Shown piece by piece: positions 13,065 through 36,143 of a DNA stretch of 42,744 bases. Where the stretch lies: contig DAOUGK010000039.1 of assembly GCA_034429055.1 (NCBI GenBank), positions 1 to 42,744 on the forward strand. Reading direction: 5' to 3'. The stretch's first letter is position 1, and every line of letters begins with the position of its first letter. The DNA is from Anaerolineae bacterium (lineage in GTDB: Bacteria > Chloroflexota > Anaerolineae > CG2-30-64-16). The position numbers and the translations under genes are program-made. The notes beneath the pieces were generated by a model, which made no database searches, was not told where the DNA came from, and saw only the letters and a list, made by a program, of their open reading frames with translations.

Positions 13065-13415
13065 ATGGTCCGCCGAATCGTCTTGCTTGGCCACTCTCTG
13101 GCGATTGACAGCATTGCCGCAGCAATCGGTGCACTGCCGGAGCTAGAGGTGTTCTATGCACCGAATGCCTCCGACTCCCCAAGCGATGTCGCAGCGGACA
13201 TTATCGCGTGCGCACCCACTGCGGTCATCTTTGACCTGACCGCAGGACTTCCAGGTAGCGCCCTCCTGCAGCACCTGATGCCACTTCATATCCCGCTGCT
13301 CGGTTTCGATCTGGAAAAACATCAGATGTTGGCACTGTCCGGCGAGCACATCCGACTGATGACGCGGGATGATTTAGTCGGCGCGCTGGCCACACCGACG
13401 GAGCAACAGCTATGA
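13065..13415 (+). CDS. Small hypothetical protein, receiver-like (possible pseudo-receiver)
   Basis: The protein is 116 aa with GAGGA 8 nt upstream. The alternating beta/alpha pattern (RIVLLGHS ... AVIFDL ... IPLLGF ...) resembles a CheY fold, but the N-terminal acidic pair is replaced by GH. Its stop overlaps the next start (ATGA at 13412-13415). Confidence 0.55.
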   Translation: MVRRIVLLGHSLAIDSIAAAIGALPELEVFYAPNASDSPSDVAADIIACAPTAVIFDLTAGLPGSALLQHLMPLHIPLLGFDLEKHQMLALSGEHIRLMTRDDLVGALATPTEQQL

Positions 13416-14020
13416 TCTCTCCCCGCTCCCTCATTTCTGCAGGCATATTCTTAATGGTTCTGGTTTTCGCAATGACGCTGCATGCAGGGCGACCGGCGAA
13501 CGCCGCTGCCGTTCCGCCGCCGCCGGATACAGTCCCGCTCCTCACTGCGGTATTGGAGGCCGCCAACGGCATCGTGCTGGTGCCTGGACCGCCTGTTTCC
13601 CTGCCCGTCCAGGCGCGGTCTGTCTCCAAACTCGGTGCGGCCACGGTTCTCGTCACCTATGACCCTGCCATCCTGAAGGCAACCGCTTGCCAGCGCAACG
13701 CAGCCTTCGACGTCGGCCTGTGCAACACCGCACATGACCGCGACGGTGACGGAAACGCCGACTCGGTGCTCTTCAATGTCGTGTCGCTCCAGGGCGTGAG
13801 TGCAGGTGAAACGCCTGTCATGCTCGTAAACATCGCATGGGAGGCGGCTGCCGGCGTGCAACCGCCCGCGTTGGCTGACCTCGGCGTACAAGTGCAGACT
13901 TTTACGGATACGAATGGCAGTCCGATGGCTGTCACAGCACAGGATGGGCAAATCACCATCAAGGCCGGCCCGACGCCTGTGCCGCGACGCCGTGTCTACT
14001 TGCCCTTGGTGCTGCGTTAG
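13412..14020 (+). CDS. Membrane-anchored/secreted single cohesin-like domain protein ending in VYLPLVLR
   Basis: The N-terminal hydrophobic segment is LISAGIFLMVLVFAMTL. The cohesin-like core is VSLPVQARSVSKLGAATVLVTYDPAILKATACQRNAAFDVGLCNTA ... VLFNVVSLQGVSAGETP. The extreme C-terminus is PRRRVYLPLVLR. Confidence 0.7.
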   Translation: MISPRSLISAGIFLMVLVFAMTLHAGRPANAAAVPPPPDTVPLLTAVLEAANGIVLVPGPPVSLPVQARSVSKLGAATVLVTYDPAILKATACQRNAAFDVGLCNTAHDRDGDGNADSVLFNVVSLQGVSAGETPVMLVNIAWEAAAGVQPPALADLGVQVQTFTDTNGSPMAVTAQDGQITIKAGPTPVPRRRVYLPLVLR

Positions 14021-14143
14021 GCGCGCAGCAGCTAGAGCACCGTGAGCCTTGTCAATCCTGGCCGGCCGGCGCCGATCTGTGGTCTTCCAGTCCGGCGCCA
14101 AACCTAGCAGGGCGGTTGCCTATCAAAACGGGAGGTACTTCCG

Positions 14144-16759
14144 ATGTATACCAAACGAGTCCTCGGCATGTTCCTGGGCCTGAGCGTGCTGGTTCTACTG
14201 GCACTGACGGTGCGCGCGGCCCTGCCGCAGCCAGGGGCGGCGGACACGGCTCTGGCCGAGGCGCCCCGCGCTGTGCCGCCGGCAGCAAACCCACAGGCCC
14301 AAGCTGCGCGCATAGACGCCGCCTTGGCACTGCCAGCAGTGGACGAGACGATATCCGGCGCAATCCTGACACAGAACTTCACCTTGCAGGCCGGCTGGAA
14401 CGCGATTTACCTGGGCGTCGAACCGATCAACGGATCACCCGTCGAGGAAGATGGCACGCCCACTCTGTCGGTCATGGAGTGGGTCTTCCAGGGCCTGGCC
14501 GAGAATGGCGCGCTCGAAAGCGTATGGACCTACACCCAGCCGGTATCATCAAAGGATTTCATCATCGATCCCAATGAGGGGCTGTGGGACGAGCCCGGCT
14601 GGGAACGCTACGTGCCTGTGCAGATGATGGGCGCGGACGGCAAGTCCCAGGGGTTTCTCAGCAACCTCTACACCCTGCATGCCGACACCGGCTACCTCGT
14701 AAAGCTGCGAGACGATCTGGGCGGACCCGTGACACTCTCGATAACCGGCAGACCGGTCGTCAGCCATCACCGCTGGGATCTGAACGCCTGGAACCTGACG
14801 GGCTTCCCCCTGCCGCTCACCGGCGGAGCCACGGTTGGGACGCTGAAAGCGGCTTCGCCCATCACCGACATTCGCGGGCTGACCATCACCGGCGCCTGGA
14901 CGAAACTCACCGACGAGGTCGCCCTACAGTACGGCCAGAGCTACCTGATCTTCTACGAGGACCCGGGCGAGGGACGGACCAACTTCACCGCGCCGCTGGA
15001 GGTACAGGAGGTCGCGGGCCGCGGCCTGACCTTCCAGGCGGGCTACCAGGGCAGCCGCCAGACGTTCAAGCTCGAGAACCTGACCGGTGCCGCCATGACG
15101 GTGAACCTGGCGCTGAAAACCGGCTCCCTGGTCGTCAAACAGGTGACAGGCATGCCAGAGAGCGAAGTGCTGACGCCGCTGCCCGTCAACCTAGACATAG
15201 CTGCACACTGGGCCGAACCCATTGTGCTGCAAGTCAGTTCGGGCGACCTCACCGGGCCGGTCGAAGACCTGCTGGAAGTCAGTTCGACGACGCCGGGCGT
15301 GCGCTGGCTTGTCCCGATTGCGGCGAAGCCGGGCTCGTACGACGGGCTGTGGGTCGGGGAGGTGGTGGTCAACAACGTCAGCGAGGCGCGGCTGGGCGCG
15401 ACCGGATTGTCCGACCTGACCGTCAGCCTTAGCCAGCAGAACGCATCCAATGTGCGCGGGGCTGCTGAGCTACACGAAGAGACCATAGGGCCGACCACGA
15501 GCGTCGACATCACCGTCACGCTCGCGCTGCCCCTGCCGGATCCGGCGCCGATACGGACCATCCAGGGAACCACACCCTACGTGGGCGGCTATGTGTTCCT
15601 GGACGAGAACCTCAACGGCCAACGCGACGCCACGGAGCGCGGCCTCAGCGGGGTAACGGTCACATTGGGCGGCCAGACGCAGGCCACGGCAGACGACGGC
15701 TCATACATTTTTCAAAGCGTGAGCGCGGGCGCCCATGCCATCTCCACCAACCTGGGGACCGGCTACACTTCGGGGTTCGACGTGATCCTCCCGGATGATG
15801 AGGAGCCCGTGACGCCGGTGGCGAACGTGCTGCCGACCAGCGTAGCGATAGCCGCAACCGGCGTCAGCAGCGTCGAACCAGCAGGCTATCTGGCCCAGGT
15901 GCTGCCAGAGCCCTACACGACCCTGCCCTTCATTGATGCGACGGGAGCACGCGTTCAGCCGGACATCAACTTCGGGTATGCCATCGCACACACAGTCAGG
16001 CTCAACGCGGGGACCTGCGCGTCGCCCGGCAGCGAAATCGCCACCGGCACGGCCATCAACGGCCGGCTGGCGATGACCCTTGCGCCGCAAACGCTCGCGG
16101 CGCTGACGGGCCACGCACATATCGCCGTCGAGCGGCTGGGGCAGATGGTGGCATGCGGCGATCTCCTCGTGGGCGCGCCGACGAAATTCGCGGACGGCGG
16201 CGGCAGCGAGTTCCGCTTCCGCCTGCTGCTGCGCGTCGACGCAAACGGGGTCGTCGAGCTGCTGCCTCACTACATCTTTGCGGACGCGGACGATGAGGCT
16301 GCCTTCCCGCGGCTGAGCAGCCCGGCGCTCTCGATCGGCGACGCCATCACGGGCTCGGGCAATTTCAGTGCCGGGAACGAGATCAAGTTCGGCGTCGATA
16401 TTGCCGGGCAGGACCCCCTCAACCCGTTCAAACACAAGTATCATCCCGACCACGATAACCTCGACGCCAAGTTCGAGCCATTCGATCCGACCCAGCTCAG
16501 CCCCTACAGTTGGGAGTCCTTCGGCGTCAGGCGGACCATCTCACTGACGCTCAAAAACGATCCTGCCTTTGAAGGCATGACGGCGGAGGAGATCCAGCGG
16601 CTCAGCGACGAATCGGATTGGGGCGGGGAGAACTGGGGCGGCGACTATGCCGAGGTCATCGAAGGGCTGCACCAGAACGATATCACGGTCAAAGGTTACT
16701 TCGTCATCCATCACGCGCTGGCGGGTGATGCGCTGACCGCGCAGGATTACGACAAGTGA
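14144..16759 (+). CDS. Secreted 871-aa hypothetical protein with one SdrD-B/Cna-B-like domain
   Basis: GGGAGG (14130-14135) precedes the ATG, and the signal peptide is MYTKRVLGMFLGLSVLVLLALTVRAA. GGYVFLDENLNGQRDATERGLSGVTVTL ... DGSYIFQSV (about 15584-15760) looks like an SdrD B-type fold. I cannot assign the C-terminal motifs NPFKHKYHPDHDNLD and WGGDYAEVIEGLHQNDITVKGYFVIHH. Confidence 0.75.
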   Translation: MYTKRVLGMFLGLSVLVLLALTVRAALPQPGAADTALAEAPRAVPPAANPQAQAARIDAALALPAVDETISGAILTQNFTLQAGWNAIYLGVEPINGSPVEEDGTPTLSVMEWVFQGLAENGALESVWTYTQPVSSKDFIIDPNEGLWDEPGWERYVPVQMMGADGKSQGFLSNLYTLHADTGYLVKLRDDLGGPVTLSITGRPVVSHHRWDLNAWNLTGFPLPLTGGATVGTLKAASPITDIRGLTITGAWTKLTDEVALQYGQSYLIFYEDPGEGRTNFTAPLEVQEVAGRGLTFQAGYQGSRQTFKLENLTGAAMTVNLALKTGSLVVKQVTGMPESEVLTPLPVNLDIAAHWAEPIVLQVSSGDLTGPVEDLLEVSSTTPGVRWLVPIAAKPGSYDGLWVGEVVVNNVSEARLGATGLSDLTVSLSQQNASNVRGAAELHEETIGPTTSVDITVTLALPLPDPAPIRTIQGTTPYVGGYVFLDENLNGQRDATERGLSGVTVTLGGQTQATADDGSYIFQSVSAGAHAISTNLGTGYTSGFDVILPDDEEPVTPVANVLPTSVAIAATGVSSVEPAGYLAQVLPEPYTTLPFIDATGARVQPDINFGYAIAHTVRLNAGTCASPGSEIATGTAINGRLAMTLAPQTLAALTGHAHIAVERLGQMVACGDLLVGAPTKFADGGGSEFRFRLLLRVDANGVVELLPHYIFADADDEAAFPRLSSPALSIGDAITGSGNFSAGNEIKFGVDIAGQDPLNPFKHKYHPDHDNLDAKFEPFDPTQLSPYSWESFGVRRTISLTLKNDPAFEGMTAEEIQRLSDESDWGGENWGGDYAEVIEGLHQNDITVKGYFVIHHALAGDALTAQDYDK

Positions 16760-35900: not shown

Positions 35901-36120
35901 TGCGACCAAACTGCCGCTGTCGCTCACCAAAGTGACATTCACAGTCACCAAGATCACGCACGCGACCTTGCCCTACGATGCCACCGCCAATCATGATCCC
36001 GACGGCGACAGCAATGGGACGAGCATCATCATCAGTCAGACGACGCTGGCGCAGCCGTCATGGCTTGCGCGCCTGGAGGCGTTCTTCGAGGGGATTGTGG
36101 CCTTGCTCTCGAGGAAGTGA
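32962..36120 (+). CDS. Membrane-anchored scaffoldin-like protein: five cohesin-like modules, Thr/Pro-rich linker, C-terminal beta-sandwich-like domain
   Basis: GGGGGAG (32951-32957) precedes ATG 32962, and ATG 32968 is equally possible. The N-terminal anchor is [23 protein letters not shown]. The five modules span about 33130-35245, the TP linker spans 35256-35703, and the C-terminal domain reads [42 protein letters not shown]... Confidence 0.85.
35256..35703 (+). repeat. Imperfect tandem coding repeats (Thr/Pro/Ala/Glu linker)
   Basis: The exact 31-mer CCGACGGCCACCGCCACCGCAACGGAAACCG occurs at 35353-35383 and 35437-35467, an 84-nt (28-aa) period. The surrounding sequence is (T/A)P(T/E)xT-type repeats for about 150 aa. 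Confidence 0.85.
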
Positions 36121-36121
36121 A

Positions 36122-36143
36122 AGGCCGGCGAGTGCGCCGGCCT
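36122..36143 (+). terminator. Stem-loop directly after the cluster's last stop codon
   Basis: AGGCCGGCG-AGTG-CGCCGGCCT is a perfect 9-bp GC-rich stem with a 4-nt loop, starting 2 nt after TGA 36118-36120. There is no U-tract. Confidence 0.5.

Follow-up and report, generated by a model that had tools for sequence, protein, structure and literature searches.

A giant protein with a predicted TcA-like module, and its candidate cohesin-dockerin partners, in an Anaerolineae bacterium

A cluster of five genes lies on the forward strand of a contig from an Anaerolineae bacterium, a member of the Chloroflexota (GenBank assembly GCA_034429055.1, contig DAOUGK010000039.1, positions 1 to 42,744). Here, "the window" means that whole stretch of 42,744 nucleotides (nt). 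The genes are called, in order, g1, g2, g3, the giant and g5. The giant is the subject of this report. Its product has probably 5,374 amino acids (aa), and a module near its C-terminus is predicted to fold like part of TcA, a protein of the Tc toxins. The cassette to which it belongs consists of a g3-like secreted protein, the giant exoprotein, and a partner that carries a domain here named ext; this cassette is widespread and conserved. The original prediction, made from the sequence of the window, took cohesin and dockerin modules to be the organising logic of the cluster. Those modules now appear to be an addition specific to Chloroflexota, and not the principle around which the system is organised.

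From domain content, synteny, phyletic distribution and similarity of predicted folds, all of which are observed, comes a reading to which we give a probability of roughly 55%. It holds that the cluster is the Caldilineaceae-type form of the g3/giant/ext cassette, and that it would build a surface-held, TcA-like pore or translocator that is tethered through its funnel end.

The cassette and its giant protein

To describe the cassette, 79 genome loci (numbered with the prefix L below) were annotated with hidden Markov models (HMMs) built for this analysis. A g3-like gene stands directly upstream of the giant in 40 of the 43 non-Chloroflexota loci that have enough flanking sequence. Elsewhere, the ext domain stands at the start of the next gene downstream; it is a separate gene in 57 of 59 non-Chloroflexota loci, and in six Chloroflexota genome loci as well. 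The window holds all three parts, with g3 upstream, the giant core in the middle, and the ext domain fused to the giant.

This core cassette occurs in Gammaproteobacteria, Verrucomicrobiota, Acidobacteriota and other phyla without cohesin or dockerin, which are confined to Chloroflexota and were found in none of 64 non-Chloroflexota loci (0/64). It is this distribution that removes the cohesin-dockerin pair from the centre of the system, and the conserved core of the giant is much older than its cohesins. The original prediction had proposed examining synteny in related genomes. Here the gene order proved robust: a small cohesin protein, g3, a giant of 5,002-5,446 aa and a multi-cohesin protein recur in this order on other contigs, beside unrelated flanking genes, so that the order g2-g3-giant-g5 is kept in relatives whose flanks differ.

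The first part of the cassette and the regions of the giant are as follows.

14144-16759, forward strand: g3, a secreted protein of 871 aa, with an SdrD_B insertion at aa 480-543
16756-32934, forward strand: open reading frame (ORF) of the giant, which opens at 16756; likely start at ATG 16810, giving 5,374 aa
17215-17697, forward strand: LamG/concanavalin-like domain (Pfam Laminin_G_3, 2.8e-21)
24118-27717 (aa 2455-3654), forward strand: chain of beta-sandwich (Ig-like) domains in an AlphaFold2 (AF2) model, mean predicted local distance difference test score (pLDDT) 80.5
25513-26181 (aa 2920-3142), forward strand: cohesin-like module A, split by a PKD domain at about nt 25696-25845
27925-31524 (aa 3724-4923), forward strand: TcA-like module as predicted, with a shell part made of helices, the long helices of the channel and, at the C-terminus, a beta "funnel" domain
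30040-30141, forward strand: putative channel-tip loop MGQPFVVGIDNDMGFMARLTAMMAGFAF, between the two long helices, low pLDDT
31597-31989, forward strand: ext domain of about 130 aa, found with an iterated HMM and fused to the giant here
31996-32211 (aa 5081-5152), forward strand: dockerin with two calcium-binding loops; its linker exceeds the usual length and includes YLPL
32269-32676, forward strand: cohesin-like module B (module profile 2e-37); after it come KPIYLPLIVNG (nt 32704) and a tail that is acidic and rich in Pro

Outside its SdrD_B insertion, g3 matches no Pfam or NCBIfam family; a profile of the g3 family finds no match among PDB sequences, and a look-up of the exact g3 sequence returns no record. 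A search finds its homologues in Caldilineaceae and other Chloroflexota. A motif near its C-terminus, FKHxYHPDHD, is invariant. In its longer form, PxNPFKHxYHPDHDNLD, it is invariant in g3 and its homologues across phyla (about 16430-16460 in the window, aa ~761-771), and it looks like a metal-binding or catalytic site.

Upstream of the g3-like gene, 25 of 39 non-Chloroflexota loci carry a gene for a PpiC-type peptidyl-prolyl isomerase (PPIase). No such gene is present in the window, and none was detected in the Chloroflexota loci, where the upstream flank is short. This pattern would fit a periplasmic chaperone that is needed only where there is an outer membrane. Examples of these PpiC/SurA-type enzymes are at L005 6235-7209, L009 7209-8189 and L010 7146-8114.

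Full-length homologues of the giant have 5,446 aa and at least 5,002 aa. After the LamG domain of the giant come Gly-rich repeats that extend to about aa 2,100 and include four choice-of-anchor Q domains (NCBIfam choice_anch_Q, 1.8e-41 over four stretches). This N-terminal part varies by phylum, with LamG, SBBP, PA14, cadherin-like or Big_9 domains in the various homologues. What is conserved across phyla, when alignments are mapped onto the giant, is aa 2455-2911 and aa 3142-4923. Between these lies a Chloroflexota-only insertion, module A with its PKD domain (aa 2912-3141), which the non-Chloroflexota homologues lack. Those homologues all end at the residue equivalent to aa 4923, which is where the TcA-like module ends.

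The core is common. Homologues with 33-42% identity occur in proteins of 2,500-3,900 aa from Gammaproteobacteria, Verrucomicrobiota, Kiritimatiellia and others. A scan of single genomes for each GTDB species finds relatives of the core in at least 574 genomes, and an exhaustive HMMER search gives 1,554 clusters at 50% identity, with the match almost always C-terminal in the protein. Databases label the members as hypothetical, LamG, PKD or dockerin proteins. Cultured carriers include strains of Marinicella, Wenzhouxiangella and Chiayiivirga, and a homologue is also found in an isolate of Paraglaciecola. Searches of the PDB with the single sequence of the giant returned nothing relevant.

The likeness to TcA comes from an AF2 model of aa 3724-4923, made from an alignment of 28 sequences (pLDDT 67.5, predicted TM-score 0.62). 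The model consists of a helical domain, a pair of very long helices with a low-confidence loop between them (one helix runs to 106 residues), and a beta domain at the C-terminus. When Foldseek compared it with the PDB, the top 19 matches were all TcA (E 5.5e-8 to 1.9e-4, probability 1.0), among them TcdA1, TcdA4, XptA1, XptA2, YenTcA and TcaA-TcaB, with alignments of about 1,050 columns for most of the prepore structures. Another Tc toxin entry holds rank 20 (E 0.059), and outside the Tc toxins no match does better than an E of 0.12. The matched part of TcA is the last shell segment, the channel and the domain that binds TcB. Among TcAs, the linker, channel and TcB-binding domain are reported as the most conserved part (PMC6795518). 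The original prediction had guessed at a beta-helix/TcA-like protein; the choice-of-anchor Q domains and the Foldseek ranking have given that guess substance.

Sequence comparison points, weakly, the same way. An alignment of 47 family members was compared by hhalign with seven plasmid-borne TcAs (SepA of pADAP and six others), giving a score of 43.0 (P 9e-4); reversed controls gave 20.4 (P 0.39) and 26.4 (P 0.09). The alignment is colinear over 694 columns, reaches to a few residues from both C-termini, and ends with DIYIYFQ paired with DIILHIR at the C-terminus. Its best-supported stretch pairs the putative tip loop, which is among the most hydrophobic family-averaged windows, with AADMLPNIYGLAVGGSRYGALFKATA of SepA; LKYRQQFDLAQTYVYLTAAAYDYE is likewise paired with AIYYQFYDLAVSRCLMAQQAWQWD. 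Thus, the likeness to TcA is supported at the level of predicted fold.

Two further observations concern this module. A single loop resembling those of dockerins and EF-hands, DVNQDGFVNEAD, lies within its helical part (28588-28623 in the window, aa ~3945-3956). It is conserved across the family, is followed by an invariant YPQGHGDAWG, and may be a calcium site. The other concerns cargo. The window contains no TcB or TcC gene (Pfam, NCBIfam, flank annotation), and a SepC-like RHS protein is found in two of the 79 genome loci; only in L090 does it come immediately after the giant. There, an RHS-repeat ORF similar to SepC, a TcC, replaces the ext gene (4115-5878, in the metagenome-assembled genome of bacterium DBS2-1.bin101); nothing else in the 79 loci hints at a cargo partner of the Tc type.

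The cohesin-dockerin layer

The modules outside the giant are distributed as follows.

13412-14020, forward strand: g2, a small secreted protein of 202 aa with a single cohesin-like module at aa 42-186 (nt 13535-13969)
32962-36120, forward strand: g5, 1,052 aa, with five cohesin-like modules
33124-33546, 33562-33960, 33979-34374, 34390-34821 and 34837-35247, forward strand: g5 cohesin-like modules 1 to 5
35248-35706, forward strand: Thr/Pro-rich linker of g5
35707-36036, forward strand: weak Ig-like domain of g5, followed by an amphipathic tail

The original prediction had counted eight cohesin-like modules, one in g2, two in the giant and five in g5, and had proposed a search with Pfam and HHpred. 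Module profiles find the same eight. Pfam Cohesin alone falls below its cut-off in five of the eight single modules (single-sequence E 8.6e-5 to 0.13). The modules are nevertheless called cohesin-like because of three things. First, two profiles, from alignments of 7 modules and of 24 modules including homologues, both match solved cohesins first in the PDB (2xdh 1.4e-6, 1g1k 9e-6, 2vn5 1e-5), the top match being 2xdh, a non-cellulosomal cohesin from Archaeoglobus fulgidus. Second, a precomputed Pfam Cohesin match is on record for nearly all g5 homologues. Third, two invariant cysteines are common to all the modules. It is the profiles of individual modules that give the PDB matches; a full-length profile of the five-cohesin protein gives none. 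For example, the module of g2 has a Pfam Cohesin E of 1.3e-3 and matches the module profile at 3e-46. Module A of the giant is weak in the window (E 0.02) and reaches 8e-10 to 2e-7 in homologues.

Eight cohesins face a single dockerin, which lies in the giant, as the original prediction had it. Pfam Dockerin_1 scores it at 33.9 bits against a cut-off of 22.9. Both of its loops, DVNVSGRRDSAD and DVTQDGRCNSTD, are intact and of the DxNxxGxxxSxD type, its best PDB sequence matches are dockerins, and it is conserved in Chloroflexota relatives.

Ownership of this dockerin is less simple than its place in the giant ORF suggests. The ext domain, which matches no Pfam or NCBIfam family, begins a protein that in Chloroflexota continues with a dockerin and a cohesin. 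This ext-dockerin-cohesin protein has a gene of its own in L004, L020-L023, L025 and L027, whereas the window, L006, L007, L019, L024 and L026 have it fused to the giant. The separate ORFs were considered as frameshift fragments and this was rejected, as they have signal peptides of their own (e.g. L004, L020). Thus, while the dockerin is located in the giant, it belongs to a downstream partner protein that was ancestrally separate. The fusions in the window and in five other loci, in turn, imply that the partner works at the C-terminus of the giant. In other phyla, ext proteins continue with Calx-beta and a 7-bladed propeller, TSP3 repeats, FG-GAP, RTX or Ig arrays.

A multi-cohesin gene lies directly downstream wherever a dockerin is present and enough downstream sequence is available; conversely, L028, the one Caldilineaceae locus without ext and dockerin, also has no multi-cohesin gene. 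Homologues of g5 are always directly downstream of the giant or of the ext protein, and 20 of them have exactly five cohesins. Five is not universal, as L004 (17421-20051) and L023 (16899-19868), both from Caldilineaceae relatives, have a two-cohesin protein in that place. The L004 protein continues beyond its cohesins with a long, collagen-like Gly-X-Y stretch, a feature that would imply trimerisation.

The five modules of g5 are not copies of one another. Each scores 110-129 bits against the module at the same position in orthologues, compared with 28-67 bits against other positions in the same protein. This means that the duplications are old and that the modules are probably not interchangeable. 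Within g5 (33124-35247), the closest paralogues are modules 1 and 4 (67 bits) and modules 2 and 5 (54 bits), a pattern that suggests ancient duplication of a two-module unit around module 3.

A short motif accompanies single cohesin modules. One to three copies of [YF]LP[LAFSI][VLIM] follow them in g2-type proteins and in the tails of ext-dockerin-cohesin proteins. In small cohesin proteins it stands at the very C-terminus (VYLPLVLR, TFLPFLSR and IFLPLVKL, each running to the stop), and g2 itself ends in RRRVYLPLVLR. Its sites in the window are 13994-14017 (C-terminus of g2), 32704-32724, and 32116-32133 (giant), and it occurs in relatives at L001, L003, L004, L020, L022, L023 and L025. It is found in 0 of 22 five-cohesin proteins, against a background of about 0.05 per 1,000 aa. 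The motif may be a sorting or anchoring signal of Chloroflexota, or a peptide ligand.

The account given by the original prediction is display in the style of a cellulosome. Here, g5 would be a membrane-anchored scaffoldin that binds the dockerin of the giant, together with dockerin proteins encoded elsewhere. Both kinds of module are real, the dockerin occurs with the multi-cohesin gene next to it wherever a Chloroflexota locus offers enough sequence, and g5 has an N-terminal hydrophobic segment. This segment (aa 17-51) is, however, the only one in g5, and it is perhaps a cleaved signal peptide. Pfam and NCBIfam searches of the five proteins turn up neither SLH nor a sortase signal nor any other known module for anchoring, so that of the membrane-anchored scaffold in the original prediction the modules have held up, while anchoring depends on this segment. 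Further, the conserved core manages without cohesin or dockerin in most phyla (0/64 loci), the dockerin comes from an ancestrally separate partner, there is one dockerin for eight cohesins, and ancient, position-specific paralogues in g5 suggest different partners. Display in this style is the best of the competing accounts, and an unlikely one.

Less probable still is an arrangement in which the cohesins do not bind the dockerin at all. They would instead bind or sort with the [YF]LP motif, or serve as beta-sandwich spacers, and the dockerin would be a structural calcium element. The motif does follow single cohesin modules and is missing from all 22 five-cohesin proteins, and ext partners elsewhere carry calcium-binding repeats (TSP3, Calx-beta or RTX) at the equivalent place. 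But the dockerin keeps both canonical loops and a Pfam score above the cut-off, and the [YF]LP motif is without known function. Non-cellulosomal cohesin-dockerin pairs from archaea, moreover, have been shown to bind (PMC9012536, citing Peer et al., 2009, and Haimovitz et al., 2008).

A tethered TcA-like machine as the favoured reading

The pore or translocator of the favoured reading would work as follows. The giant would be exported by Sec and would oligomerise through its TcA-like module, as a pentamer if the analogy with TcA holds. Its variable N-terminal arrays (LamG, Gly-rich repeats, Ig-like domains) would bind the target, and the giant would then drive its helical channel, with the hydrophobic tip, into the target membrane. 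The ext partner would sit on the funnel end, where TcB docks on TcA. Contacts of dockerin and cohesin with g5, and perhaps with g2, would tether the funnel end on the surface of the producer or hold subunits together. Oligomeric state, pore formation, binding partners and biological target are all proposed here. That five g5 cohesins match a TcA pentamer is suggestive only.

Several results weigh against this reading. Confidence in the AF2 model is moderate (the pLDDT given above), and global TM-scores against TcA structures are low, at 0.14-0.22. Such scores are expected, however, because a multi-domain model is being compared with prepore and pore conformers. The hhalign probability is 22.6%. 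Pfam finds no match to VRP1, Neuraminidase, TcA_TcB_BD or ABC_toxin_N even at E <= 10, and NCBIfam is also blank; a profile of the core family, run against PDB sequences, finds no TcA, just coiled-coil noise. The module is accordingly not placed within the TcA sequence families. The match to TcA is confined to its C-terminal part. For the sequence upstream of the module, identity with the shell or receptor-binding part of TcA was considered and rejected, as Foldseek matches to the model of aa 2455-3654 are generic (Ig, cadherin and GhpA arrays). A TcB homologue like SepB is found in none of the 79 genome loci. Finally, the five cohesins of g5 are strongly divergent from one another, and some relatives have a protein with two cohesins, or two cohesins plus collagen, instead; together these weaken any picture of five identical dockerins on five cohesins.

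A very improbable alternative is that the likeness to TcA is a false positive from long helices in a mediocre model, with the giant being a passive fibrous adhesin or S-layer-like protein, as its adhesin-like N-terminal two thirds (LamG, beta-helix, Ig, PKD), the low TM-scores and the absence of a sequence-level family match for the core would allow. Against this, other long-helix proteins (SMC, BAR, Wadjet) come in at E > 0.1 while 19 TcAs are at 2e-4 or better, the hhalign match is colinear, exceeds its reversed controls and reaches the very C-terminus, and the module is strictly C-terminal across the family.

Gene layout, known systems and meaning

The window has a G+C content of about 65%, and the ORF listing places the five forward-strand ORFs at 13065-36120, as the original prediction had. 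The remaining features are these.

12993-13020, forward strand: promoter-like site (consensus match only) in a lower-GC spacer of 230 nt upstream of g1
13065-13415, forward strand: g1, 116 aa, without signal peptide; the codon-position GC pattern fits a coding frame
36122-36143, forward strand: hairpin AGGCCGGCG-AGUG-CGCCGGCCU, a 9-bp GC stem directly after the g5 stop

Most of what the original prediction had said of the layout was reproduced. Genes g1 and g2 overlap in ATGA (at 13412), and gaps of 123, 50 and 27 nt separate g2 from g3, g3 from the giant and the giant from g5. The 50-nt gap is obtained with ATG 16810, preceded by GAAGGAGAGG, which makes this the likely start of the giant. Shine-Dalgarno-like sequences stand before g3, the giant and g5. 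Four of the five products, those of g2, g3, the giant and g5, carry a single hydrophobic segment at the N-terminal end, which g1 lacks. Terminator-like sites within the cluster on the forward strand are short, few, and not commoner than in shuffles. The hairpin after the last stop is stable (-21 kcal/mol, z = -2.6), though it lacks a U-tract; the gene beyond it is on the reverse strand and convergent.

Membership of g1 did not survive. It has no Pfam or NCBIfam match and no signal peptide; it is not upstream of the cluster in L001 and L003, where g2 orthologues do precede g3, and it is not conserved in related loci. As a part of the system it was rejected for want of conservation; g1 is lineage-specific and cytoplasmic, and its membership is doubtful.

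Ordinary chromosomal genes surround the cluster. Its immediate upstream neighbour is a LuxR-type response regulator, with GH36, a P-type ATPase and a 7TM histidine kinase beyond; the other side has DUF2207, an RNase II-family gene and FtsH. The HisKA_7TM/PAS histidine kinase is at 5741-7462 and the response regulator at 12175-12834, stopping 230 nt before g1. In L003, a BTAD/AAA_16 regulator takes the upstream position. The LuxR-type regulator is a candidate regulator of the cluster.

Four kinds of known systems invite comparison. The first is TcA itself (TcdA1 of Photorhabdus, YenA of Yersinia entomophaga, SepA of Serratia). The predicted likeness covers the shell part, the helices of the channel with their hydrophobic tip, and a C-terminal domain rich in beta structure that stands where TcA has its TcB-binding funnel, and it extends to weak colinear sequence similarity up to the C-terminus. 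In both, the periphery is variable and the central machine conserved (PMC6795518 for TcA). The giant differs in having a Sec signal peptide, in lacking TcB-TcC cocoon genes and any Pfam or NCBIfam TcA membership, and in carrying an N-terminal, adhesin-type extension of 2,400-3,700 aa that replaces the full TcA shell and receptor-binding domains. Conversely, Tc loci have no known counterpart of g3, the ext protein or the PPIase. A census built on TcC and its Tc-locus context assigned 96.4% of Tc toxins to Proteobacteria and 3.2% to Firmicutes (PMC7861908); the giant family occurs in phyla for which that census has no Tc toxins.

The second is the cellulosome, as in CipA of Clostridium thermocellum. 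Here too, tandem cohesins are on one protein, the dockerin is on another, and the genes are adjacent. Unlike the cellulosome, the cluster sits in a Chloroflexota host with one dockerin for eight cohesins and without SLH or sortase anchoring, and its cohesins, which share a pair of invariant cysteines, are position-specific paralogues that have diverged strongly. Pfam and NCBIfam find no glycoside hydrolase domain in the five proteins, in agreement with the original prediction, and no carbohydrate-binding module. The third is formed by the scaffoldin-like cohesin proteins of A. fulgidus (2xdh) and of ANME archaea, the latter with up to five cohesins in a protein, which have no link to cellulose (PMC9012536); in the window, the modules are instead embedded in a conserved gene set, with a TcA-like giant as candidate partner.

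The fourth is the class of giant surface adhesins, including GhpA, which are also long secreted proteins with arrays of LamG, beta-helix, Ig-like and PKD domains. GhpA fragments are among the Foldseek matches for aa 2455-3654, at the level of generic Ig arrays. These adhesins have neither the TcA-like C-terminal module nor the g3 and ext partners.

As for novelty, the original prediction had held that such a use of cellulosome logic was uncharacterised. The non-cellulosomal cohesin-dockerin part is not new in kind, as proteins of this sort, with up to five cohesins, had already been described (Peer et al., 2009, as cited in PMC9012536). For the rest, a literature search that covered TcA-like proteins, those of Chloroflexota and Verrucomicrobia included, and predation by Wenzhouxiangella found no description of the TcA-like giant family or of its cassette. 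What would be new is a distant, cocoon-less, Sec-exported TcA-like module in giant surface proteins, with cohesin-dockerin tethers.

Tc toxins are studied as protein injectors of insecticidal and medical relevance, and as devices for programmable delivery. The general view confines them largely to Proteobacteria plus some Firmicutes and makes a TcB-TcC cocoon a requirement. A broader reading, put forward tentatively, is that the giants are an unrecognised family of Sec-exported, TcA-like, membrane-perforating machines beyond pathogens, which would be cocoon-free and use g3 and a funnel-seated ext partner. It would take in 1,500 or more clusters at 50% identity, and no fewer than 574 species, of Chloroflexota, Acidobacteriota, Gammaproteobacteria, Verrucomicrobiota, Desulfobacterota and others. 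Filamentous Chloroflexota would have made of it a contact-dependent injector or pore, held at its funnel end on the surface of the producer by cohesin and dockerin, which would serve, for example, in killing or preying on neighbours.

If this is true, the evolutionary and mechanistic range of the TcA machine is widened, a cocoon-free or differently loaded mode of action is suggested, and thousands of giant genes now called "hypothetical" gain a function. Because Marinicella, Wenzhouxiangella, Chiayiivirga and Paraglaciecola carriers are in culture, the hypothesis is directly testable. The roles of non-cellulosomal cohesins and dockerins have been ill-defined since these were first catalogued; the Chloroflexota version would offer them a defined set of candidate partners, encoded together.

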